Positions 7,692 to 33,413 of a stretch of 64,000 nt of DNA are shown piece after piece. Below the pieces are notes generated by a model. The model was not told the origin of the DNA and made no database searches. It worked only from the letters and a program-made list of their open reading frames with translations. Position 1 is the stretch's first letter; every line of letters starts with the position of its first letter. The position numbers and the translations under genes were made by a program. This DNA comes from an uncultured Gallionellaceae bacterium (lineage in GTDB: Bacteria; Pseudomonadota; Gammaproteobacteria; Burkholderiales; Gallionellaceae). The stretch covers positions 5,398 through 69,397 of the forward strand of contig CAZXDK010000005.1 in NCBI GenBank assembly GCA_964639585.1. The letters are read 5' to 3'.

Positions 7692-8412
7692 CCATTGCAT
7701 CGTTCCCGACTGGCCCGCGCCCGGAAATGTGCGCGCCGTGCAGACCACGCGCGTCGGCGGCGTGAGCGTTGCGCCTTATGCCAGCTTTAATCTGGGCGAC
7801 CACGTAAGCGATGCGCCGCAAGCCGTGGCGCGCAACCGGCAGTTGCTCTCGGCGTTGATGCCGAGCGAGCCGGTGTGGTTGCAGCAAGTGCACGGCACGG
7901 TGGTCGCCGATGCGGACAGCGCGGGCTGTGTGGTTAGTGCGGATGCCAGCGTGGCGCGCCAGCGCGGTTCGGTCTGTGTGGTGATGACGGCGGATTGTTT
8001 GCCCGTGTTGCTGTGCGACGAAGCGGGGGCTGTGGTCGGTGCGGCGCATGCGGGATGGAAAGGGCTGGCGGCTGGAGTGATCGAGGCCACCGTGCGGGCG
8101 ATGGATGCCGATACGCGCAAGTTGATGGCATGGTTAGGCCCCGCCATCAGCCAGCGCGCATTCGAGGTGGGCGCGGAAGTGCGCAGCGCTTTCACCTCGC
8201 AGCATGCGCAAGCGAGCGCAGCTTTTGTGCCCGGCGCGAACGGCAAATGGATGGCCGACATGTATCTGCTGGCGCGGCTACGTTTGCGCGCGCTCGGCAT
8301 CACCCGCGTGTATGGCGGCGAGTATTGCACTTACAGCGACCCGGCACGGTTTTTTTCTTACCGGCGCGATGGCGTAACCGGACGCATGGGCACTTTTATC
8401 TGGTTGGAATAG
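7678..8412 (+). CDS. pgeF: PgeF/YfiH family (laccase-domain) peptidoglycan editing factor
   Basis: This is the C-terminal 244 codons of ORF 7117..8412, starting at the GTG at 7678. Motifs VQTTRVGG, NLGDHVSD, TADCLPV, HAGWKG and CTYS. Follows rluD as in E. coli. Confidence 0.88.
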   Translation: MNLLDHCIVPDWPAPGNVRAVQTTRVGGVSVAPYASFNLGDHVSDAPQAVARNRQLLSALMPSEPVWLQQVHGTVVADADSAGCVVSADASVARQRGSVCVVMTADCLPVLLCDEAGAVVGAAHAGWKGLAAGVIEATVRAMDADTRKLMAWLGPAISQRAFEVGAEVRSAFTSQHAQASAAFVPGANGKWMADMYLLARLRLRALGITRVYGGEYCTYSDPARFFSYRRDGVTGRMGTFIWLE

Positions 8413-10528: not shown

Positions 10529-11302
10529 ATGAGTGTTTTTGCCTGGATCATCGTCGCGAGTTTGTTCGGCGGCATGTTGAGTGTGATATGCGCCGCATTG
10601 TTCGCATTGAATACCCGCGCGCACTGGGTCGGCGGATTGGTGAGTTATGCCATCGGCGCTTTGCTGGGGGCGGTGTTCCTCGACATGTTGCCCGAGGCGC
10701 TCAAGCTCAGTTCCAGCGTCACCGCGGTCAGCACTACGGTGCTGTTCGGCATTTTATTGTTCTTTACGCTGGAGAAAGTGCTGATCTGGCGTCATTGCCA
10801 CCATGACCATTGCGAAGCGCACGAACCGCACGAACACACCGCGCATGACCACGGGCGTAGCGGCGCTATGGTGATCGTGGGCGACACCTTCCACAATTTT
10901 ATCGACGGCATCATTATCGCGGCAGCCTTTTTGACTGACATCCATCTGGGCGTTGTCACTGCGCTGGCCATCATCGCGCACGAGATACCGCAGGAAGTCG
11001 GCGATTTCGCCGTTCTGCTGCACTCCGGCTACAGCAAAATGCGCGCATTCCAGATGAATTTGATTTCCAGTTTTGCCACGGTGGTGGGCGCTATGCTGGG
11101 ATATTTCACTTTGCAGACCATGCAGGCCTGGACGCCGTCGTTATTGGCGTTGGCGGCTGCCAGCATGATCTATGTGGCGGTCGCCGACCTGATTCCGGGC
11201 TTGCATAAGCGCACGCAACTGCGCGACACCATTCAGCAAGTGGTGCTGATAGCTCTGGGGGTGGGGACGGTGGCGCTGATGAACGCCCTGGTTGCCGGGT
11301 AG
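10529..11302 (+). CDS. ZIP family divalent metal transporter
   Basis: Multi-TM protein with a His-rich loop HCHHDHCEAHEPHEHTAHDH and the ZIP signature HEIPQEVGDFAVLL. Confidence 0.9.
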   Translation: MSVFAWIIVASLFGGMLSVICAALFALNTRAHWVGGLVSYAIGALLGAVFLDMLPEALKLSSSVTAVSTTVLFGILLFFTLEKVLIWRHCHHDHCEAHEPHEHTAHDHGRSGAMVIVGDTFHNFIDGIIIAAAFLTDIHLGVVTALAIIAHEIPQEVGDFAVLLHSGYSKMRAFQMNLISSFATVVGAMLGYFTLQTMQAWTPSLLALAAASMIYVAVADLIPGLHKRTQLRDTIQQVVLIALGVGTVALMNALVAG

Positions 11303-24276: not shown

Positions 24277-24309
24277 TGTAGTGCAGCGTTCTTAACGGCA
24301 CTTATGCTC

Positions 24310-24422
24310 CCTTCCCCCGCAGGCGGGGGAAGGGCAGGGGATGAGGGGTGCTGAGTACGTCACAAATTTGTTTCAACTTGCCATCCCTCACCCCAACCCC
24401 TCTCCCGCCTGCGGGAGAGGGG
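24310..24422. repeat. Inverted pair of the GC-rich palindromic element (intergenic copies)
   Basis: First copy: CCTTCCCCCGCAGGCGGGGGAAGG followed by GCAGGGGATGAGGGG. Second copy: CCCTCACCCCAACCCC followed by TCTCCCGCCTGCGGGAGA. The two are in opposite orientation. Confidence 0.85.
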
Positions 24423-24479
24423 CTTATGCCGAAATTGATTCGCATCAAGTCTCCCGGCAAGACAACACTGCACTGGCTG

Positions 24480-25219: not shown

Positions 25220-25540
25220 ATGATCTCCGAGCAAACCATACAACAAGCAGCACAGCTTTTAGGCGAGGCTGCCAAGCCTGCCAAGGTCATATTGTTTGGC
25301 TCGTATGCACGCGGCGATGCGCAGGAAGATTCTGATTTGGATTTTCTGGTGATCAAGTCGGAGCCGCACGATAAATTTAATGAGATGGTGCGTTTGCGCC
25401 AAGTGCTGCGTCCGTTGAAAGTGGCGGCAGATGTATTGGTCTATTCGCAAGCGGAGATCGATCAACAACAGGATGCTTGTTCAACTGCGGTCTATTGGGC
25501 ATTGCGCGAAGGTCGCGTGTTGTATGACACAGCGCACTGA
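25220..25540 (+). CDS. Nucleotidyltransferase (MNT-type) antitoxin of a HEPN/MNT pair
   Basis: Contains VILFGSYARGDAQEDSDLDFLVI. Overlaps the downstream HEPN gene. Confidence 0.88.
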   Translation: MISEQTIQQAAQLLGEAAKPAKVILFGSYARGDAQEDSDLDFLVIKSEPHDKFNEMVRLRQVLRPLKVAADVLVYSQAEIDQQQDACSTAVYWALREGRVLYDTAH

Positions 25541-25906
25541 GCTGGCACAACGACTATTGGCGCTCGCCGAGCGCGACATCACCTCGTTTCGCGCGTTGGC
25601 CACACATCCCGAAGTAGATATTTCCGCGACAGGATTCTTTGCCCAGCAAGTGGTAGAAAAATGTCTCAAGGCCGTCGCCGAGTATCGCGGCATCGTGTTT
25701 CGTAGAACACATGACGTGGACGAACTCGTCGATCTGCTCTTGCAACACAAGGTAGTAATGCCATTCCCATCAGACCAATTCAGTATCCTCAATCCGTTCG
25801 CGGTGATCTTGCGCTATGAGCGCCGTATGTCAGCATGTCGTTGGAGGATATGCGGCAATTGGTTGATCTAGCCCATCAATGGGCGCGAGGTGTGATTGCC
25901 GCTTGA
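25524..25906 (+). pseudogene. HEPN-domain toxin gene with an apparent 1-nt frameshift near 25820
   Basis: Frame A (25524..25871) reads ...FFAQQVVEKCLKAV...RTHDVDELV...LNPFAVILRYE and then becomes implausible. The shifted frame (+2 relative to frame A, as after a 1-nt deletion) is open from 25820 and reads APYVSMSLEDMRQLVDLAHQWARGVIAA up to the TGA at 25904. Confidence 0.6.
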
Positions 25907-25952
25907 GGTACAAGGCTGCATCAGTGTGAAAGCTCATCACTATGGGAGGCAA

Positions 25953-26153
25953 ATGAATGTTAAACCGATTCGCAACGACGACGATTTGCGTGCCGTATTC
26001 AAACGGATGGAGCGCGTATACCAAGCGCAAGAGGGAACACTTGCAGCGGACGAGATGGAAATTCTCGTCACGCTGATTGAGGCATACGAACACAAACACT
26101 TTCCGATAGGTTTGGTTGATCCGGTCGAAGCCATCAAATTCAGAATGGAGTAG
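25953..26153 (+). pseudogene. Truncated higA-type antitoxin (N-terminal 66 codons only)
   Basis: About 90% identical by eye to 26904..27101. TAG replaces the CAG found in the full copy, and similarity ends just after it. GGGAGG Shine-Dalgarno sequence is present. Confidence 0.7.
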
Positions 26154-26248
26154 CAATTGTTCTTGCACCGTATGTGGGCAGGAAAATAATCCGAACTTCC
26201 CCTTTTTTGCTCTCTTGACGCTATGCGCCATTGGCGTATATTCTGCGC

Positions 26249-26560
26249 ATGATTTTTGTTGAGACACCGACATTCACGCGCCTGATCGTAGCGTTGTTGG
26301 ACGATGACGAATACTCAAAGCTGCAAGAGGAATTGGTCAAGCGTCCCGATGCGGGCGACCCCATCAAAGACGGTGGCGGTATCCGCAAACTTCGCTGGAA
26401 GCGGGCGGGGACAGGCAAGAGCGGCGGCATACGGGTTATCTACTATTGGCTTACCAAAGACGATCAGCTATTGATGCTCGTGGCCTACCCCAAGAACGTG
26501 AAGGACAACCTGACCGACAAAGAAACTGCGCTGCTGCGTAAACTGGTGAAGGAATTATAG
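26249..26560 (+). CDS. higB: HigB-2/RelE-like toxin
   Basis: MIFVETPTFTRL...GGGIRKLRW...GKSGGIRVIYYW resembles Vibrio HigB-2 (recalled from memory). 2-nt gap to the downstream antitoxin. Confidence 0.8.
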   Translation: MIFVETPTFTRLIVALLDDDEYSKLQEELVKRPDAGDPIKDGGGIRKLRWKRAGTGKSGGIRVIYYWLTKDDQLLMLVAYPKNVKDNLTDKETALLRKLVKEL

Positions 26561-26562
26561 AA

Positions 26563-26853
26563 ATGGACAAGACACTTTTTGAAGACCTCAAACAAAGTTT
26601 GAAAGAAGCCGGAGCCATCCGCCGAGGAGAGCTTGCGCCCGGCAGAGTGACAGAGGTCAATGCGCCCGATGCCAAATCCATTCGAGCCAAGGTCGGGTTG
26701 AGTCAAAGCGAATTTGCCCAACTGATCGGCGTTAAAGTCGCGACACTCAGAAACTGGGAACAGCATCGCCGCCAACCCACAGGTGCCGCAGCGGCATTGC
26801 TCACGATTGTAGAGAAAGAGCCCGATGCCGCACTGCGCGCATTGCATTCGTAA
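26563..26853 (+). CDS. higA: HigA-2/NadS-like HTH antitoxin
   Basis: LFEDLKQSLKEAGAI followed by the XRE-type HTH GLSQSEFAQLIGVKVATLRNWEQHRRQP. Confidence 0.82.
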   Translation: MDKTLFEDLKQSLKEAGAIRRGELAPGRVTEVNAPDAKSIRAKVGLSQSEFAQLIGVKVATLRNWEQHRRQPTGAAAALLTIVEKEPDAALRALHS

Positions 26854-26903
26854 AATAAATAGCCCGAAAAAATATTGTGAATCCACTCGCTAATATCCCC
26901 GTC

Positions 26904-27260
26904 ATGAATATTAAACCGATCCGCAACGACGACGACTTGCGCGCCGCATTCAAACGGCTGGAGCGCGTGTACCAAGCGCAAGAGGGAACGCCAGCAGCGG
27001 ACGAGATGGAAATTCTCGTCACGCTGATCGAAGCATACGAACACAAACATTTTCCGATTGGATTGGTTGATCCGGTCGAAGCCATCAAATTCAGAATGGA
27101 GCAGCAAGGCCTGACTCAAAAAGACCTTGAGCCCTACATCGGCTCAAGCGGACGCGTTTCCGAAGTATTGAACCACAAGCGTCGGCTCAGTTTGCAAATG
27201 GTGCAGCGTCTGCATAACGGGCTGCACATCCCTTATGAAAGCTTGTGGTCTGCTCCATAG
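26904..27260 (+). CDS. HigA-family XRE HTH antitoxin (full length) with no adjacent cognate toxin
   Basis: MNIKPIRNDDDLRAAFKRLERV...EQQGLTQKDLEPYIGSSGRVSEVLNHKRRLSLQMVQRL. The alternative GTG start is at 26877. Confidence 0.78.
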   Translation: MNIKPIRNDDDLRAAFKRLERVYQAQEGTPAADEMEILVTLIEAYEHKHFPIGLVDPVEAIKFRMEQQGLTQKDLEPYIGSSGRVSEVLNHKRRLSLQMVQRLHNGLHIPYESLWSAP

Positions 27261-27293
27261 CATTGTGATGCAGCCCTTTTCTGTTTAAACACC

Positions 27294-27569
27294 ATGGATG
27301 AACGCACCCTAAAACGCCTGTTGATCATCGTTGCAGCTAGCATCCTGATCATCTGGGTATTCAAGTCGATGATGTTGAAAGCGGCTGTCAGCCTGAACAA
27401 AGTCGCCGCAGAAAAAAAGCAAGCCGCTGCCGCAACGCCCACCCCGCAGCAGGACGCAACGCCCGAAGCCGATGTGGCGCATGTGATTGAAACGCCCGCA
27501 GCATCGGCTCCCAGAGAGGTGGTTACATTGGAATCGCCTGCAGCATCCGGCGTGGGGGAAGGGCGTTAG
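27294..27569 (+). CDS. Small hypothetical membrane-anchored Ala/Pro-rich protein
   Basis: One TM segment (LLIIVAASILIIWVF) and a terminator downstream. No clear Shine-Dalgarno sequence. Confidence 0.3.
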   Translation: MDERTLKRLLIIVAASILIIWVFKSMMLKAAVSLNKVAAEKKQAAAATPTPQQDATPEADVAHVIETPAASAPREVVTLESPAASGVGEGR

Positions 27570-27606
27570 GTTTGCGGGATTGGATGGGCGGGATGGGCGA
27601 AAAAAT

Positions 27607-27632
27607 GGCGACCGAGGCCGCCGTTTTTTTTT
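27607..27632. terminator. Terminator-like short GC hairpin with a 9-T run
   Basis: GGCGACCGAGGCCGCC followed by G and TTTTTTTTT, with an A-run on the other side. Confidence 0.55.
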
Positions 27633-27732
27633 AATAGTGACCAGCTCTTAGTTATCCTCGCGAGCTCTGGTTATAAGATTCGTAAGTGTGTGAACAAATT
27701 AAGATGAGCTGTCGAATTTAATTTCATGCCAA

Positions 27733-27996
27733 TCATTTCTGCCCAAACAGCTCATCCAGCGGATTCTTCCCCGCAGGCGCACTCCCCGAAGCTCTCTTCA
27801 CCGCAAACTCTTCTTCAATGTTATCCCGATAAAAACTCCAAGCCGCGCCGGAGGTACTGAGTCTGCGCCACAGGTCTCCGCTGACGCCGCTGTGTTGGAG
27901 TGTGCTGCCGCTGTCGAGTTGGACTTGCAGGATGCGCGTTCGCGCGTCGTAGCCGATGGCGCGCAGTTTGCCGGAATTGATCTTTTTCATTTCCAT
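27733..27996 (-). CDS. KTSC domain protein
   Basis: MEMKKINSGKLRAIGYDARTRILQVQLDSGSTLQHSGVSGDLWRRL matches the KTSC domain pattern. Confidence 0.8.
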   Translation of the reverse strand: MEMKKINSGKLRAIGYDARTRILQVQLDSGSTLQHSGVSGDLWRRLSTSGAAWSFYRDNIEEEFAVKRASGSAPAGKNPLDELFGQK

Positions 27997-28037
27997 CGTG
28001 CTTTGCTGCTCAAGATGCTTGATGCTGAATGTTCATC

Positions 28038-30791
28038 TTATTTGCCACCATTAAAAGACAGGTATCCGGTGGGTATTGGTGATTGGAATGGTTTTTCGCC
28101 GAAGTTTACTTCCCACGTGGTATCTGAGCGCGGTATGCCTTGCTTTACTTCACTGGTGACGGTCCCGGCTGCCAGAACGCAGGCACGGTATTGTTTACCT
28201 TGTTCCAATGGGAATCCATTTCCACTTTCGGGGGGCCCGCTGAGCCATTTTTCGTTCACCCTGAAATAGAGTTTGTGTTGGTCAAGGTCCGCCGCGATGC
28301 CAAATATGTCTCCTTCCTTGTATAGCTTCTGTTCGCCATGGCGAATGACGGTTAATCCTCCGGGCATTGTCGGTGCGTCGATTCCATTGCCGCGCTCGAG
28401 GCAAAGTCCGATGTTTGCATGGGGGTGTGCGGATAGTGAGCCTGTGACCTTTATCTTTCCTTCGTAGTAGAGCTTTCCTGCCGAGAAGGCGCGGTTAGAC
28501 CATGCATCGGTATATGCACCCGCCGGGCCGCGCAGGAGAGTGTTGCCATTTACGGCTTCTGTGAATGCGCTTTGCAAAGTGATGGCAGAGCCATTAAGAC
28601 GAGGTTTCTGTAGTGGTGGCAGGACAAAGGAGGGGGTTTGTGCGCCGATGCTGAATCCGGCGGCGGGTGCTTCATTGCTTGCCTGAAAGGTTTTCGGTGT
28701 CGCATCGGTGAGCGCACGGGTCGCAGTGGCGATGTCGATTAGGTCGTTTACTTCGTTACGAGTCGGGAAACCATTGAACAGGTTGATTCCCATCCTTTGC
28801 ATGATTTCTGTTCTTCGGGTGACGTTGACTTGCGGTTTGCCTCCGCCGGAGAAAGTGACTCGAGGTTCGTAATATCCGATGGCGATCACCCGTTTTAGGT
28901 TAACGCCGCGGTCTGCTTCTATATGCCATTCGATAGGTTCGTAGGCAAGCAGAAGCAGGACTGCGTTGTCTTCCGTCACTTTGAGCTTAACTATACCTTC
29001 AGAATGTTCTTGGCTATTACGTGGTGCGCCTTTGGGTTGAAATGCTTGATAGATCGAAACCACGTGTACTGGCGCACCTTCTGCCGGATAGAGGGCGGCT
29101 CGTTTGGGTGTTGACGCAGGAATGGCTGGTGGCGCGATGGTTTGCGTTGCATACGGTGTGGCAGGAGCCGCTGCGGGCACGGCTGCGTTGATGGCAGCTT
29201 GCACCAGATTTTGTTGCACAAGGGCGGGGGACTTGATCTGTATGCTTGGGGCGGACGCTACGGTGAGCGGTAGCATCGGCGCGAGATGGGCCGGCAGGGT
29301 GGTGTAATTGATTTCCGGGTAGCCAGGTGATAAACCGTTCAAGTGCCATTTTCCTTCTCCATCAGTGGGAACGAAATTAAGCTGACCGGTCATTTGTATG
29401 CCGTTATCGATCAACGACTTTAATGCCGGCAGAGATTCGCTGATTTTGATTGCCCAGTCTGGAGTCTGGGTCACCAGACCACGAGCTTTGATTTGAAATA
29501 CACCCCGGTTACCTTGCACACTCAGCACGTCGATGTTGATGCGTCCGGCCGGAATACATCCGCTGCCATAATTTACGAGCCCAAGTGCCTCAGCTGCTTC
29601 GCGCGTTACTGTGTAACGCACTCCGCCGTTCTTTGCTTCCGGGGAGGGTAGGACGCTGTCTTTCGAGAACTTACTGTTCGGGCGCGAGGGGGGGATGTGT
29701 TCCATTGTCGCTAAACTGGCGTGCTCTAATGCGGACATAATGTGGAGTGACTTGTACATCATGCGAAGTTCGTATTCTTTGCGGTCTGCCTTGTCGTAGT
29801 AGGTGACTGAGAACGGGGGGGCAGTTTCTGAGGCACGGGTATTGCCGACTACAGGTTTATCGTCTCCACCACGCTGGAGCTGGAGCGGTAAGCAGGCGAT
29901 CCCGTTGCTGGAAAGCCAGTTGGTGTCTGTCGATTGCCCTGTCATCAGTTGCTTTGCATCTTCAATGCTGGGAGGTTGGCGCAGGAGATTCTTTATCATC
30001 TCCTGCAAATAATTGTTGGCAGTCGCCTGGCCTTTGGCGGCTTGCGCAACTTCGATCTCGATCTCGTAGGCCGAACGCCAACCTTCTTTGGTTCTAATTA
30101 CTTTTGCATGCCCCTTGCTGTCTTCGGTTAGTTGTTGAAGTTTGGGGAACCAGCGTTTCGCATCCGGATTTTTTGTCCAAGCGGGGGCGTCGGATTGTTT
30201 GGTCGTATAAGTCACTTCATAGACATCGAGATCCATGACTTTTTCGAGCAATTTCTCAATCTTCTCGATTCCGGCAAATTCCCTTCGTCCGTAGTTGAAG
30301 CAAAGCATGTTTCCATAATTGAGCTGATTGTTGGCGAACCCTTCCCAAGTCATTTGGTAGATGCGCGCGGGGAGTGTTCCGTTATCGCTTTCGATGGTAC
30401 TGTCCGTCGCGGTAAATAAACCTTGCGAGGCTAGATAATCCAGTTGACCAAGCTGTATGTCTCGTACAGCTTGGTCGCGAACATTGGTTTGTCGTAACAG
30501 CGTTATCGAAAAGCGCCCGGGAGCTGCAGCGGGGGCGATTCCGGGGAATCCGGAAATTTCGGGAGCGGGACGGTTAATGTCCACATTGATGCAAGGTTCT
30601 GCGACTTCACGGGTGTTGATGTTGATGAGTACCTGTTTGCGTACAGATTCTTCCATCGCCGAGGCGATAGGTGCACGAGGGTTATTCCCGATCAGTCCGG
30701 TATCCCATGCAAACCATGCTCCGTAACCACTGCCAGCAAGAGCCGATAATGTGATGGCGGAAATGATCGTTACCTTGATATATTTTTTCAT
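28038..30791 (-). CDS. Large N-terminally anchored protein with a C-terminal SPRY domain; remainder unknown
   Basis: ATG at 30791 (MKKYIKVTIISAITLSALAG) within ORF 28038..30806. Ala/Pro linker near the middle. The C-terminus (GKLYYEGKIKV...ANIGLC...EGDIFGIAADLDQHKLYFRVNEKWL...WEVNFGEKPFQSPIPTGYLSF) fits the SPRY consensus. Confidence 0.85.
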   Translation of the reverse strand: MKKYIKVTIISAITLSALAGSGYGAWFAWDTGLIGNNPRAPIASAMEESVRKQVLININTREVAEPCINVDINRPAPEISGFPGIAPAAAPGRFSITLLRQTNVRDQAVRDIQLGQLDYLASQGLFTATDSTIESDNGTLPARIYQMTWEGFANNQLNYGNMLCFNYGRREFAGIEKIEKLLEKVMDLDVYEVTYTTKQSDAPAWTKNPDAKRWFPKLQQLTEDSKGHAKVIRTKEGWRSAYEIEIEVAQAAKGQATANNYLQEMIKNLLRQPPSIEDAKQLMTGQSTDTNWLSSNGIACLPLQLQRGGDDKPVVGNTRASETAPPFSVTYYDKADRKEYELRMMYKSLHIMSALEHASLATMEHIPPSRPNSKFSKDSVLPSPEAKNGGVRYTVTREAAEALGLVNYGSGCIPAGRINIDVLSVQGNRGVFQIKARGLVTQTPDWAIKISESLPALKSLIDNGIQMTGQLNFVPTDGEGKWHLNGLSPGYPEINYTTLPAHLAPMLPLTVASAPSIQIKSPALVQQNLVQAAINAAVPAAAPATPYATQTIAPPAIPASTPKRAALYPAEGAPVHVVSIYQAFQPKGAPRNSQEHSEGIVKLKVTEDNAVLLLLAYEPIEWHIEADRGVNLKRVIAIGYYEPRVTFSGGGKPQVNVTRRTEIMQRMGINLFNGFPTRNEVNDLIDIATATRALTDATPKTFQASNEAPAAGFSIGAQTPSFVLPPLQKPRLNGSAITLQSAFTEAVNGNTLLRGPAGAYTDAWSNRAFSAGKLYYEGKIKVTGSLSAHPHANIGLCLERGNGIDAPTMPGGLTVIRHGEQKLYKEGDIFGIAADLDQHKLYFRVNEKWLSGPPESGNGFPLEQGKQYRACVLAAGTVTSEVKQGIPRSDTTWEVNFGEKPFQSPIPTGYLSFNGGK

Positions 30792-30808
30792 AATTGACCT
30801 GGCCAAAA

Positions 30809-31129
30809 TTAAATGAGGGCGGTATTACGTTTGCTTTCATCGCCATGCATCTTCGGGATTATTAACTGGCGATAATTTGCAATCGGCAGCGAAGAGTTAT
30901 TGACGGGAGATGAGGACGGTTTCAGTCGGTTACATTTTGTAACCGACTCACTACCTTTCTTGCCCAGACGATTTTTTAGCACTTTCCAGTAGTTGCGGGC
31001 AGCTTGGTAATCCGGCTGCTGGGCGAGTATTTGAATGATGTCCACCACGGAGAGCCACCATGTTTCGGTGGCTTCGTTGTAGATGCGGCGTATCTGGTGG
31101 TCTTCAAAGAGGACGGGCTGGGTTTTCAT
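30809..31129 (-). pseudogene. Bro-N-domain protein remnant (N-terminal ~70 codons conserved, tail unrelated)
   Basis: FEDHQIRRIYNEATETWWLSVVDIIQILAQQPDYQAARNYWKVLKNRLGKKGSESVTKCNRLK matches the Bro-N family. The expected continuation is missing. Confidence 0.6.
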
Positions 31130-31224
31130 CGTGATCGGGTATGCGTTATTTCAACTGGTAACTATTTGTTACTAGTTGAGGCTGGAAGGAAAGTTCAGTC
31201 GGTGACGATTGCTCACCGACTAGT

Positions 31225-31277
31225 GCGTCGTAGCCGATGGCGCGCAGTTTGCCGGAGTTGATCTTTTTCATTTCCAT
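31225..31277 (-). repeat. 53-bp duplicate of the KTSC gene 5' end (start codon plus 17 codons)
   Basis: Identical to 27944..27996 apart from one A/G difference. Confidence 0.9.
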
Positions 31278-31305
31278 TTCATTCTGCCCCCGGCGTCCAG
31301 CGGTT

Positions 31306-33171
31306 CTATTTGTACAGCACCTGTTCCTTCAGGTTGTCTATCGCCTTTTCCGCAACCTTTTTGTATTCAACGAATAGCTGCGGCTTGCAGACATTGCCCT
31401 GGCTGCGGTCGTCGAGCGTGCGTTTTACGGTGAGGATGTTGCCTTTGAGTTTGTAGGTCGCCGTGTATGCGACGAAGTCGTTGGCGATTTTGAGGTTATC
31501 CGGGAACGACAGCACTTTGACCGTCTTGGGCAGTTCGATGACAAATTCTTCCACATGATTGATGTCGGAACAGGTGACATCGACTGCCTCCGGGTTCATC
31601 CCGGTCTGCAGGAATGCGTAGATAGGTGCGGTCATGTTGAGCGGCAGGTGGATGTAGAAAGCGCCAGCACCGGGCAGCTTGATGAACTTCTCGGCATTGA
31701 AGCTCACTTTGTAGTGGTAGCTGTCGGTCAGTTCTTTCGGGTCGTCTTTTTCCAGCTTGCCGCTGCCGAGCATGCCTTGCTGGCGGTACATATTTTTGAC
31801 CAGGTCATCTTCGGCTTCCTTGCTGAGGTTGCGCGCCCATGCGCGTGTTTGTACTGCGCCTATCCCGCGCAGGGAGATTTCCATGTTGCCGCTGACCGAA
31901 CCGTCCGCCGCGATCTTGAGCACGCTCTTCACGTGTTGCCGGTTGCTGCCGATCGGCGGTGCCGGAGTTTTGCTGCCGTCTTTGTAGCCTTCTACCGGCA
32001 GCACGGGTTTGTCCTGGTCGCCGAAGGGCAGCAGGCCGAACGGCGTGGAGTCCGATGTGGAATCGGCATACAGGTTGAAATCGGGGAGGTAGTTGATCAC
32101 ATGGTTGACGGTGGAGACGACCGGGACTTTGGGGAGTTGATAGGCGGAGCCCGCATTCACCAGCGCCTGGGTGCTTTTGATGCCGCGAGCGGCAAGCAGC
32201 GCCTGTAGCAATGTCGCGTGATCCTTGCAATCGCCCATTTTGTTGTCGAGGATGAACGCGGTGTCGCGCGGCACCACTGCGCCGATGCCGATGCAGTTGC
32301 CGGCGTAGGTGATGTTCTTGGCGACCCATTCGTACAGCGCGCGCGCCTGTTCTTTGGGGGCGGTTTTGCCCTTGACGATCTCGCCGGCCAGTTTGCTGAT
32401 CCTGTCCGTGACGGCAGCCTTGGGGAGTGCGCGTTCGCCATAAGCGGCGGCGATGTCGGCGTAGGTCTTGAAGGTGGAGAAGGACAAGCCTGCCACTTGG
32501 TCGGCGTTGAAAACAGAGTAGTCGCGGCGTTCTGTCTTGAGCGGTTGCGGATGGGTATAAGTCCATTCCATGATCTTGCGCTCGCCTTTGGTGGCGTTTG
32601 CCGTTTCTTGCATGCCGCGGGCTTCGTATTGCGCCCACATCGAGGCGGGATAGTCGAACCTTACGCGCACCTCGTCGTAGGCGACATGATCGTAAAAATA
32701 ATGTGCGACCGAATATTGTTTGGGGAACATGGGCTCGGTTTGCACGAGCTTGTAGGAGAGCACGACCTTGTCGCCGACGGCGACATCGGGGAAGACGACG
32801 GTCAATGTCGTCCAGTCGGAATAGACGGGTGCATCCTTGCCCTTGCCGCTATTCGACTCGATTTGATAATTGTCTTTCGGCGCGTCCAGCCGGCGTCCAT
32901 CCGCTTTCAGGGTATAGGCCGCGACGACTTCCGCCTTCTGCGCGCTGGTGCTGTAACTGACGGAAGCGCTCTTGGATTTTTCCAGCGCAGTTTCTTTCAG
33001 CACGGTCTTCGACCATTCGTGCGACTCGACCGCCGTGCCGTCTGCGTTGATGACGTAGGCGGCGTGGTAGTAGCCGAAGCGGGTTTGCAATTCCAGCGGG
33101 TCGCCCGTGGCAGCGCGGGCGGTGGTGCAAAACATGAATGCTGCAAGGAGTGTGGCGAATGCGGTTTTCAA
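31306..33171 (-). CDS. Exported DUF3857-like / transglutaminase-like cysteine protease family protein
   Basis: TTG at 33171 after AGGGGA gives the signal peptide LKTAFATLLAAFMFCTTARA. Transglutaminase core GDCKDHATLLQALLAARGI. ORF track 31306..33330. Confidence 0.82.
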   Translation of the reverse strand: MKTAFATLLAAFMFCTTARAATGDPLELQTRFGYYHAAYVINADGTAVESHEWSKTVLKETALEKSKSASVSYSTSAQKAEVVAAYTLKADGRRLDAPKDNYQIESNSGKGKDAPVYSDWTTLTVVFPDVAVGDKVVLSYKLVQTEPMFPKQYSVAHYFYDHVAYDEVRVRFDYPASMWAQYEARGMQETANATKGERKIMEWTYTHPQPLKTERRDYSVFNADQVAGLSFSTFKTYADIAAAYGERALPKAAVTDRISKLAGEIVKGKTAPKEQARALYEWVAKNITYAGNCIGIGAVVPRDTAFILDNKMGDCKDHATLLQALLAARGIKSTQALVNAGSAYQLPKVPVVSTVNHVINYLPDFNLYADSTSDSTPFGLLPFGDQDKPVLPVEGYKDGSKTPAPPIGSNRQHVKSVLKIAADGSVSGNMEISLRGIGAVQTRAWARNLSKEAEDDLVKNMYRQQGMLGSGKLEKDDPKELTDSYHYKVSFNAEKFIKLPGAGAFYIHLPLNMTAPIYAFLQTGMNPEAVDVTCSDINHVEEFVIELPKTVKVLSFPDNLKIANDFVAYTATYKLKGNILTVKRTLDDRSQGNVCKPQLFVEYKKVAEKAIDNLKEQVLYK

Positions 33172-33413
33172 GTATTTCCCCTTTGTCGGACAGGTTATGT
33201 TGCTGGCATTGTTTCCCCTGGGCTGCGGGAATTTTGTCTTGCGCCAGGCTCCTGTTCCGGGGGTTCGCCGTTTGCCTCGCGCCGTGCGTGCGGTGCGATG
33301 TGCGTGCGGCGGACTTGCAAGCGGGCGCAACTTTAGGCGAGTTATTCGGGGGCTGTCAATGGCGACGTGGGCTGTATAATCCCACGCTCATTGAGTAATG
33401 AGAGAAACCGCTT

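Follow-up and report, generated by a model that had tools for sequence, protein, structure and literature searches.

A 64,000-nt stretch of Gallionellaceae DNA (hereafter the window) was found to contain, as the open reading frame (ORF) 28038..30791 on the minus strand, a gene for a 917-aa protein whose C-terminus forms a true but divergent SPRY domain. In the AlphaFold2 model this protein is laid out as a membrane helix, two alpha/beta modules (N-modules 1 and 2), an Ala/Pro tether, a middle domain and the SPRY domain. We propose, with a probability of roughly 0.55, that it serves in the periplasm as a tethered binding or adaptor protein. Neither this architecture nor the N-modules, the middle domain or the exported cassette that the middle domain forms with SPRY is described in Pfam, NCBIfam, PDB or the literature searched.

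The SPRY gene and its reading frame

The SPRY gene is complete, with 917 codons and a stop, and begins at the ATG at 30791 according to the ORF list and the homologue alignment; an AGG lies 7 nt 5′ of this ATG. The longest frame (28038..30806, minus strand) would give 922 aa if started from TTG. In the homologue alignment the start of all relatives coincides with the ATG at 30791 (MKK/MNK...), and the in-frame TTG at 30806 is an unlikely start.

A word-indexed search recovered 46 homologue clusters with 41-75% identity to the 917-aa protein, all annotated as "hypothetical" and without precomputed Pfam domains. An exhaustive HMMER search with the family alignment A1 (43 sequences) found 1,031 relatives at E≤1e-3, with 266 at E≤1e-10; these are representatives at 50% identity, and the number is a lower bound for the family. 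Because of these 46 clusters and 1,031 relatives, the ORF is a real gene and not a chance ORF. Searches with the single 917-aa sequence found nothing in Pfam, NCBIfam or the PDB sequences. An earlier note on this DNA had quoted GKLYYEGKIKV, ANIGLC, GDIFGIAADLDQHKLYFRVNEKWL, YRACVLAAG, WEVNFGEKPFQSPIPTGYLSF and VLLLLAYEPIEWHI...VIAIGYYEP from a 917-aa ORF, and both the ORF and all of the motifs were confirmed in the translation. The same note called the region AT-rich, which is too strong for a gene of 52.4% G + C, but the G + C content is indeed lower than that of the surroundings: G + C at third codon positions (GC3) is 0.54 versus 0.67-0.81 in the flanking chromosomal genes, and the mean G + C content of the window is 56.7%.

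The C-terminal SPRY domain

The AlphaFold2 model of the 917-aa protein was built on alignment A1 and has a mean predicted local distance difference test (pLDDT) score of 81.8. Foldseek comparison of the model with PDB placed SPRY/B30.2 domains at all of the best 50 matches to residues 740-917 (28041..28574, minus strand), with E-values of 2.3e-7 to 5e-5 and target template modelling (TM) scores of 0.4-0.62. The best match was DDX1 (4xw3, E=2.3e-7), and the 50 comprised SPRY proteins as varied as DDX1, Ash2L, Gid1/RanBP9/10, TRIM9/11/67, MID2, SPSB2, HERC1, the ryanodine receptor (RyR) and nematode SPRYSEC. No lectin or glucanase fold was found among them. The C-terminus had been called SPRY in the earlier note, with another beta-sandwich, such as a ConA-like lectin fold, as the outcome that would speak against it; the Foldseek comparison and the profile match to DDX1 given below bear the SPRY call out.

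Sequence profiles gave the same picture. A more diverse module alignment, A3, which consists of 20 sequences down to 21% identity, displays the canonical SPRY motifs, and its profile matched the SPRY domain of DDX1 over the entire domain (E=1.8e-7; profile 242-406, chain 35-189), dozens of RyR SPRY2 entries at about 1e-4 (range 4e-5 to 1e-3) and, more weakly, SPRYSEC, Ash2L and RanBP10. The A1 family profile gave a weak match to RyR SPRY2 (E=0.034). Individually, 11 of the 43 relatives in A1 and 7 of the 20 in A3 match Pfam SPRY below or near threshold, and four more distant relatives also match it, the best with an E-value of 2e-12. Because of these Pfam matches of family members, the 50 Foldseek matches and the match of A3 to DDX1, we conclude that a true but divergent SPRY domain, more than a generic ConA-like sandwich, occupies the C-terminal ~178 residues. 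Bacterial SPRY domains themselves are already recorded in databases, and the view that they are very rare in bacteria was not upheld, with SPRY of the same type in 81 of the 146 relatives whose domains were mapped.

The beta-sandwich fold is thus common to this domain and the eukaryotic SPRY/B30.2 domains of DDX1, Ash2L, RanBP9/Gid1, SPSB2, TRIM proteins and RyR SPRY2, as are the core motifs GK.YFE, GD.(I/V)G.A.DLD...LY....NG.W and W.VNFG..PF. Unlike these proteins, the 917-aa protein is bacterial, is predicted to be exported and tethered to the inner membrane, carries an undescribed middle domain before SPRY in place of PRY, RING, SOCS or helicase modules, and is too divergent to match the Pfam model.

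The middle domain and its resemblance to the betaglycan orphan domain

The middle domain, residues 573-735 (28587..29075, minus strand), is marked by the pattern HVVSIY...LLLLAYEPIEWHI...GYYEPRV...ALT..P.TFQ and was modelled with pLDDT of about 90 as a beta-rich domain with two helices. It is repeatable, being present in 1-7 copies per protein among the relatives.

A second AlphaFold model, of residues 31-735 only, reproduced the domain layout. Foldseek comparison of this model with PDB gave no match at E≤1e-3; the best matches, above this limit, were four entries of the betaglycan (TGFBR3) orphan domain (E=0.01, prob 0.94, 109-121 columns). Sequence profiles, too, found no PDB relatives of this domain other than betaglycan orphan domains, and the E-value fell as profile diversity rose, from 0.57 (A1) through 0.004 (A3) to 0.0004 with A6, a profile of the middle domain alone (40 sequences). 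The A6 match to zebrafish betaglycan (E=4e-4) covers 61 columns and was accompanied by a second weak match at the equivalent motif in orphan subdomain 2. The strand motif common to the two domains is 'kP.v..L.S..Pv.W.i'. With hhalign against P0208, the one available vertebrate-type sequence (a 98-aa fragment), only 24 columns were aligned ('kPlvfvLnSpqPilWk', P=3.6e-4, probability 37%); PF26060, the Pfam family of P0208, was absent from all Pfam scans of family members.

The orphan domains of betaglycan and endoglin are extracellular, beta-rich with an alpha-helix, and bind protein ligands (PMC5464963). The orphan region of endoglin was described as a new beta-helix-like fold with one helix, duplicated and circularly permuted, without structural homologues (PMC5464963). 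The middle domain shares the strand motif with the orphan domain (PF26060; PDB 6mzn, 9b9f) and may share its fold. Unlike the duplicated, circularly permuted endoglin pair (PMC5464963), the bacterial domain is single or in simple tandem: the window protein has one contiguous copy, its relatives have simple tandem copies, and the intertwined permuted pair is not present. We put homology between the middle domain and the betaglycan orphan domain at roughly even odds; it is plausible but not established, the evidence being weak.

The N-modules, the tether and the N-terminal helix

The protein begins with MKKYIK (charge +3, three Lys), which precedes a hydrophobic helix at residues 3-30 (30702..30785, minus strand). 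This helix was seen in the AlphaFold model and coincides with the sole hydrophobic segment (residues ~4-29). Directly after it, the homologue alignment displays a conserved GGYGAWxAWDxGLIGxNPRAP motif.

N-module 1 spans residues 43-270 (29982..30665, minus strand) and was modelled, with pLDDT mostly 80-96, as a helix on long curved beta-hairpins; it contains the invariant Cys67 and Cys164. N-module 2, residues 271-515 (29247..29981, minus strand), has the same order of secondary structure, with Cys300 and Cys412 invariant. The alignment columns that are invariant (40/40) fall within residues 1-510, and these four Cys are among them. The Cys pairs of the N-modules would probably form disulfides. 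With hhalign the two N-modules were collinear across 168 columns (E=0.18), pairing Cys67 with Cys300 and Cys164 with Cys412 and aligning the C-x3-G-R, P-x-W and (F/L)P-x-L motifs as well. The two modules are likely old internal duplicates; at E=0.18 this is not proven and is kept as a suggestion from sequence.

No relative of N-module 1 was found in Pfam, NCBIfam, PDB or the viral structure library, and the viral structure library held no credible match to residues 31-735. Two candidate assignments of the N-modules were rejected. An NTF2/cystatin-like fold (Foldseek prob 0.2-0.6 over ~75 columns) was too faint to assign a fold family. The N-module profile A9 matched designer pentatricopeptide repeat (PPR) proteins at E=4e-12, a value that is the sum of nine matches of ~4 bits between one 30-residue stretch and the consensus repeat; no single match passes, and the model at that place is beta-strand, not helical hairpin.

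Between N-module 2 and the middle domain lies a disordered tether, residues 516-572 (29076..29246, minus strand), with 16 Ala and 9 Pro in 57 residues and pLDDT of 27-40; its length and sequence vary between homologues. The anchor, two large regions, Ala/Pro linker and 'VLLLLAYEPIEW' segment listed in the earlier note agree with the domain boundaries of the AlphaFold model, and its statement that the parts outside SPRY belong to no recognised family holds for Pfam, NCBIfam, PDB and viral structures, none of which gave a match to a described family.

A modular family of bacterial proteins

Four sub-profiles were placed locally on 146 listed relatives (P0047-P0192, representatives at 50% identity) to map their domains. 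The commonest arrangement was the exported middle+SPRY pair (39 relatives have middle-SPRY), followed by two N-modules only (16) and copies of the middle domain only (16); a further 11 were full-length, 11 had N-modules with the middle domain, and 7 had N-modules with SPRY. Middle-SPRY-middle, SPRY-middle-SPRY and other arrangements were also present. Given this shuffling, the sequences indicate that middle+SPRY is a recurrent cassette, present in hundreds of exported bacterial proteins, and that each of the four modules is evolutionarily mobile. NCBIfam has no model of the cassette, and a second word-indexed search, with a middle+SPRY profile, recovered largely the same family.

Some relatives (P0084, P0099, P0146, P0158 and P0160) consist only of tandem middle domains and have no Pfam match. 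In P0084 (1,495 aa) six copies were mapped, and the exhaustive search gave seven matched stretches. Because such proteins are tandem middle domains alone, the middle domain behaves as an independent repeatable unit and merits its own family definition.

Pfam domains accompanying the modules in relatives were ankyrin, Sel1, WG_beta_rep, WD40, RCC1, MORN, HEAT, LprI, TonB_2/TonB_C, TolA_C, extracytoplasmic function (ECF) sigma regions and DnaJ. In a metagenome-assembled genome (MAG) of Rhodocyclaceae (L007, 8001-12038), a 669-aa variant has the two N-modules and a different C-terminal tail, and a gene for a 674-aa WD40 beta-propeller begins 4 nt after it. The two genes look like a jointly acquired two-gene unit, since both have GC3 of ~0.58 with 0.85-0.95 around them.

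The distribution of the full-length type was scanned by pattern in one genome per species for 185,579 species, which gives a lower bound. Five loci with a full-length-type relative were confirmed, all in MAGs: Rhodocyclales, Sideroxydans, Steroidobacteraceae, Rhodocyclaceae and an unclassified Gammaproteobacterium. The source names of homologues add Gallionellaceae and one Desulfobulbus MAG. The full-length protein was thus found only in uncultured Beta-/Gammaproteobacteria, among them the iron-oxidising Gallionellaceae, and in the one Desulfobulbus MAG. The full-length architecture is clearly rare and environmental, and the middle+SPRY cassette widespread.

Cellular location and membrane topology

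A hydrophobic segment was found at the start of 106 of the 130 testable relatives. Among short middle+SPRY proteins, P0072 has a lipobox (...LAAC) and P0068, P0140 and P0156 have classic signal peptides. The lipoprotein domain LprI is present in P0116 and P0200, and direct reading of the C-terminal tails of P0108 and P0117 revealed TonB_2/TolA-like domains after middle+SPRY. In the full-length relative P0054 a J-domain (33 bits, which exceeds the Pfam cut-off) precedes the membrane helix, and a weaker one was seen in P0063; the 8 members of the P0054 cluster come from independent sources, Candidatus Proximibacter danicus among them. J-domains work in the cytoplasm, and therefore the part of P0054 that follows the helix must lie in the periplasm, and the helix must remain uncleaved for such a fusion to be meaningful. 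Taken together, the signal peptides, lipoboxes, TonB_C/TolA_C/LprI fusions and the J-domain before the helix indicate that the family is extracytoplasmic and point to the periplasm. The three Lys before the helix and the four invariant Cys after it point to the 917-aa protein being an N-in/C-out signal-anchor protein of the inner membrane.

Proposed function and alternative explanations

In the proposed mechanism the 917-aa protein would cross the inner membrane once, with its N-terminus in the cytoplasm and nearly all of its mass in the periplasm. The two related alpha/beta modules, putatively stabilised by disulfides, would form a base near the membrane, from which the ~55-residue Ala/Pro tether would let the head sweep the periplasm, possibly as far as the peptidoglycan or the outer membrane. 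SPRY, aided by the middle domain, would then bind a protein or peptide ligand in the envelope. The data show the gene to be real and establish its domain boundaries, the identity of SPRY, the modularity of the family and the export signals of relatives, from which we infer how the 917-aa protein is oriented, that it has disulfides, how far its tether reaches and, most of all, what kind of ligand it binds. SPRY (PF00622/B30.2) is a protein- and peptide-recognition domain in characterised eukaryotic proteins. The binding or adaptor function is proposed because of this, and because relatives combine their modules mostly with interaction repeats (ankyrin, Sel1, WG_beta_rep, WD40, RCC1 and MORN). 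No catalytic family was detected by Pfam or NCBIfam in the 917-aa protein or its full-length family. Of the options offered in the earlier note, a periplasmic binding protein is the one favoured by the evidence.

Several observations weigh against this proposal. An A-L-A/G motif at residues 17-20 (A19/G20) is a possible signal-peptidase site, and cleavage there could free the protein into the periplasm, not anchored. The analysis revealed no ligand, no partner gene and no conserved operon, and the neighbourhoods differ at almost every locus. The N-terminal 500 residues, over half of the protein, hold all of the invariant columns, are without a functional analogue and may carry the main activity. 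The 917-aa protein itself has no match to Pfam SPRY (PF00622) at E≤0.1 and falls short of the gathering score of 26.3 bits. Furthermore, SPRY is classified in the ConA-like lectin/glucanase clan, which makes glycan binding possible.

This last point leads to a lectin-like alternative, in which SPRY and the middle domain would bind peptidoglycan, lipopolysaccharide (LPS) or exopolysaccharide and not protein. It would suit the glycan-rich compartment of the protein; outer-membrane or envelope genes adjoin at certain loci (PLA1 at L001 and an OmpA-like barrel at L003), and one relative has a weak match to the penicillin-binding protein (PBP) C-terminal domain BiPBP_C (E=0.0017). However, the best 50 structural matches are all protein-binding SPRY domains, with no lectin or glucanase, the sequence profile also selects SPRY domains only, and no carbohydrate-active or peptidoglycan-binding family was detected by Pfam or NCBIfam, and we regard glycan binding as unlikely. 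We give equally little credence to a sensor of envelope state, whose periplasmic body would detect, for example, misfolded or mislocalised protein and signal to cytoplasmic chaperones or regulators, in the J-domain relatives via DnaK. The J-domain before the helix in P0054 (8 members in the cluster) and P0063 fits such a role, as do the ECF-sigma regions in two relatives and the neighbourhood at L012 (4027-7523), where, downstream of a short middle+SPRY gene whose product has a signal peptide, lie the coding sequences of a J-domain protein of 121 aa, a YbjN/CesT-like protein, PspA/IM30 and DUF4178. This neighbourhood, together with the J-domain fusions, hints that the cassette is tied to chaperone or membrane-stress functions. 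But the PspA arrangement was observed once, J-domain and sigma fusions are a small minority of the ~150 relatives scanned, and the 917-aa protein has only six cytoplasmic residues (MKKYIK), no J-domain and no obvious cytoplasmic output.

An origin from phage, or a role in defence against phage, on a mobile insert of lower G + C, was among the suggestions of the earlier note and is by far the least probable. In its favour are the GC3 of 0.54 versus 0.67-0.81 in the neighbours, a 53-nt direct repeat that brackets the SPRY gene, an adjoining ORF that is a truncated PDC-S13/S04-like remnant, toxin-antitoxin and defence-fragment genes 0.7-2.8 kb away, and a variable island after the neighbouring KTSC gene in L009 and L010. 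Yet PADLOC matched 0 families to the 917-aa protein, the one PHROG match was marginal (E=0.0067, in the SPRY region), the viral fold search of residues 31-735 was without credible match, and no integrase, tRNA or Rfam element was found at the locus. The position of the gene is syntenic in relatives, the G + C content of homologues tracks that of the host (48-68%), the Bro-N-like remnant belongs to a separate, window-specific insertion, and distant homologues lie among housekeeping genes in heterogeneous contexts, with no conserved defence neighbourhood.

A broader reading, centred on the ancestry of the middle domain, is more tentative, and we hold it to be somewhat doubtful. Here the middle domain would be a prokaryotic relative of the betaglycan/endoglin orphan domain and would form with SPRY a widespread, hitherto undescribed two-domain recognition cassette of exported proteins, carried on anchors as varied as the two-module base, lipoprotein signals, TonB/TolA-like ends, ankyrin/Sel1 arrays and J-domain-coupled helices.

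Comparison with TonB/TolA and DjlA

TonB and TolA have an N-terminal anchor, a spacer that is rich in proline or disordered, and a binding head at the C-terminus, an order also seen in the 917-aa protein (helix 3-30, tether 516-572). A TonB_2/TolA-like C-terminal domain is present in relatives P0108 and P0117 only; the 917-aa protein has no TonB_C/TolA_C by Pfam. Unlike TonB and TolA, it has a globular base of 470 residues, and ExbBD/TolQR genes are absent from the neighbourhood of the SPRY gene. The likeness is offered as an architectural analogy only. With the DjlA-type co-chaperones, the P0054 cluster and P0063 share a cytoplasmic J-domain and a single membrane helix, but in reversed order, with the J-domain N-terminal and a large periplasmic body; the 917-aa protein has no J-domain.

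Genomic context of the SPRY gene

A gene for an 87-aa KTSC-domain protein (27733..27996, minus strand; Pfam KTSC E=9e-14) is located 41 nt 3′ of the SPRY gene, the exact spacing given in the earlier note. The two genes are probably co-transcribed. No terminator-like site was found in the spacer between them, the next one being at 27607-27622, after KTSC; a sigma-70 promoter scan of 27200-31400 found none and was uninformative. Among the loci examined, the KTSC gene adjoins the SPRY gene only in the window, L001, L009 and L010 (homologues of 69-75% identity) and is absent next to it in L003, L005, L007, L008, L011 and L013. A functional link between the two genes was rejected, the adjacency being confined to these four closest genomes and not conserved across the family; it is lineage-specific, not functional.

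Comparison of window ORFs with L001 by tblastn revealed the same gene order, with identities of 74% for the SPRY gene, 83% for KTSC, 68% for rhodanese and 82% for PurL. L009, a Sideroxydans MAG, has a DUF3857/transglutaminase gene, the SPRY gene and KTSC in window order, and L010 has the SPRY gene followed by KTSC. The DUF3857 and transglutaminase-core gene (window 31306-33330, minus strand; L009 5942-7807) lies directly upstream of the SPRY gene in the same orientation; it is absent from this place in L001 and L010, and therefore the pairing is probably positional, not functional. Distant homologues (42-55% identity) were found in unrelated, mostly housekeeping neighbourhoods without KTSC. 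The G + C content of SPRY-gene homologues tracks the host over its range but often falls towards the bottom of the local GC3 values. No integrase was found, and tRNA and Rfam scans at the locus and the KTSC 5′ end gave no element, only sub-threshold matches to an unrelated GC-rich palindrome. Because of the synteny in relatives, the host-like G + C content and the lack of phage, defence or integration signals, we conclude that the SPRY gene is vertically inherited and chromosomal in Gallionellaceae and is not the recent mobile or phage insert that had been suspected.

An older insertion may nevertheless have left a trace. The intact KTSC coding sequence opens with 53 nt (copy A, 27944..27996) that are repeated directly at 31225..31277 (copy B), where an orphan 5′ piece of KTSC closely follows the stop codon of the transglutaminase-like gene. 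A repeat search found the two copies to be identical at 52 of 53 positions, with a spacing of 3,281 nt, and to bracket the SPRY gene; copy B still opens a 43-codon ORF. L001 has the same bracket (7901-7951 versus 10812-10862, 51 nt, 88% identical) with a different upstream gene (PLA1), and L009 has an apparent decayed copy at the equivalent place. As read from these repeats, the bracket is probably what remains of an ancestral insertion that placed the SPRY gene at the KTSC 5′ end, possibly by single-crossover integration; gene conversion and selection are possibilities for the near-identity of the window copies. Over its initial ~55 nt the KTSC gene is near-invariant at the nucleotide level in four genomes (window 27944-27996, L001 from 10815, L009 from 10904, L010 from 10881), in which neighbouring genes have 68-83% protein identity; this stretch has no Rfam family.

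Between copy B and the SPRY gene is a window-specific insertion of ~385 nt, absent from L001 and L009. At its start, directly after the orphan KTSC fragment, is a terminator-like hairpin with a 10-bp stem (31196..31222, minus strand), and within it a truncated Bro-N-like ORF of 106 aa (30809..31129, minus strand), which matched the PADLOC candidate defence families PDC-S13 (E=8e-21) and PDC-S04 (E=4e-19) and phrog_15286 (E=1e-11); Pfam gave a weak AbiJ_NTD4 match only. The ORF covers profile positions 5-88 of 286 of PDC-S13, the N-terminal third of a ~290-aa protein, and its matches to PDC-S04 and phrog_15286 are likewise limited to the first ~88 positions. The Bro-N remnant reported upstream in the earlier note is thus present, and its matches mark it as the truncated remnant of a mobile or defence-type gene, separate from the SPRY gene.

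On the other side of KTSC, the window has a small toxin-antitoxin and defence-fragment island (25220-27260) that is absent from the syntenic L001; variable islands also follow KTSC in L009 and L010. The window island contains a nucleotidyltransferase and HEPN pair (25220-25871), RelE with a helix-turn-helix (HTH) gene (26231-26853) and a 127-aa HTH ORF (26877-27260) equivalent to positions 1-118 of the 402 in PADLOC PD-Lambda-2_B (E=1e-41). The N-terminus of this ORF occurs twice, through a direct repeat of 204 nt whose copies (25953-26156 and 26904-27107) are 92% identical. Between the TPMT-like and rhodanese genes, at 24304-24426, there is a GC-rich imperfect palindrome with 32-nt arms, 81% complementary, which gave only sub-threshold matches to microRNA (miRNA) families in Rfam and is probably a repetitive extragenic palindromic (REP)-like element or a bidirectional terminator.

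Significance

SPRY is a main protein-recognition domain of animal innate immunity and signalling, and to our knowledge almost nothing is known about its role in bacteria. The present analysis shows that a divergent type of SPRY, invisible to Pfam in many members, is common in exported bacterial proteins and almost always adjoins a second undescribed domain. It defines a concrete family that counts no fewer than 1,031 representatives at 50% identity and includes three new domain types fit for curation. Its immediate value is descriptive, the function given here being one proposed from sequences and models. If the middle domain is truly related to the betaglycan/endoglin orphan domain, it would provide an evolutionary origin for that "orphan", and the broader reading, if true, would amount to a periplasmic protein-recognition toolkit made from domains regarded as animal signalling modules. 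As the full-length protein is confined to uncultured lineages including the Gallionellaceae, any function it has would bear on the poorly known envelope biology of these hosts.

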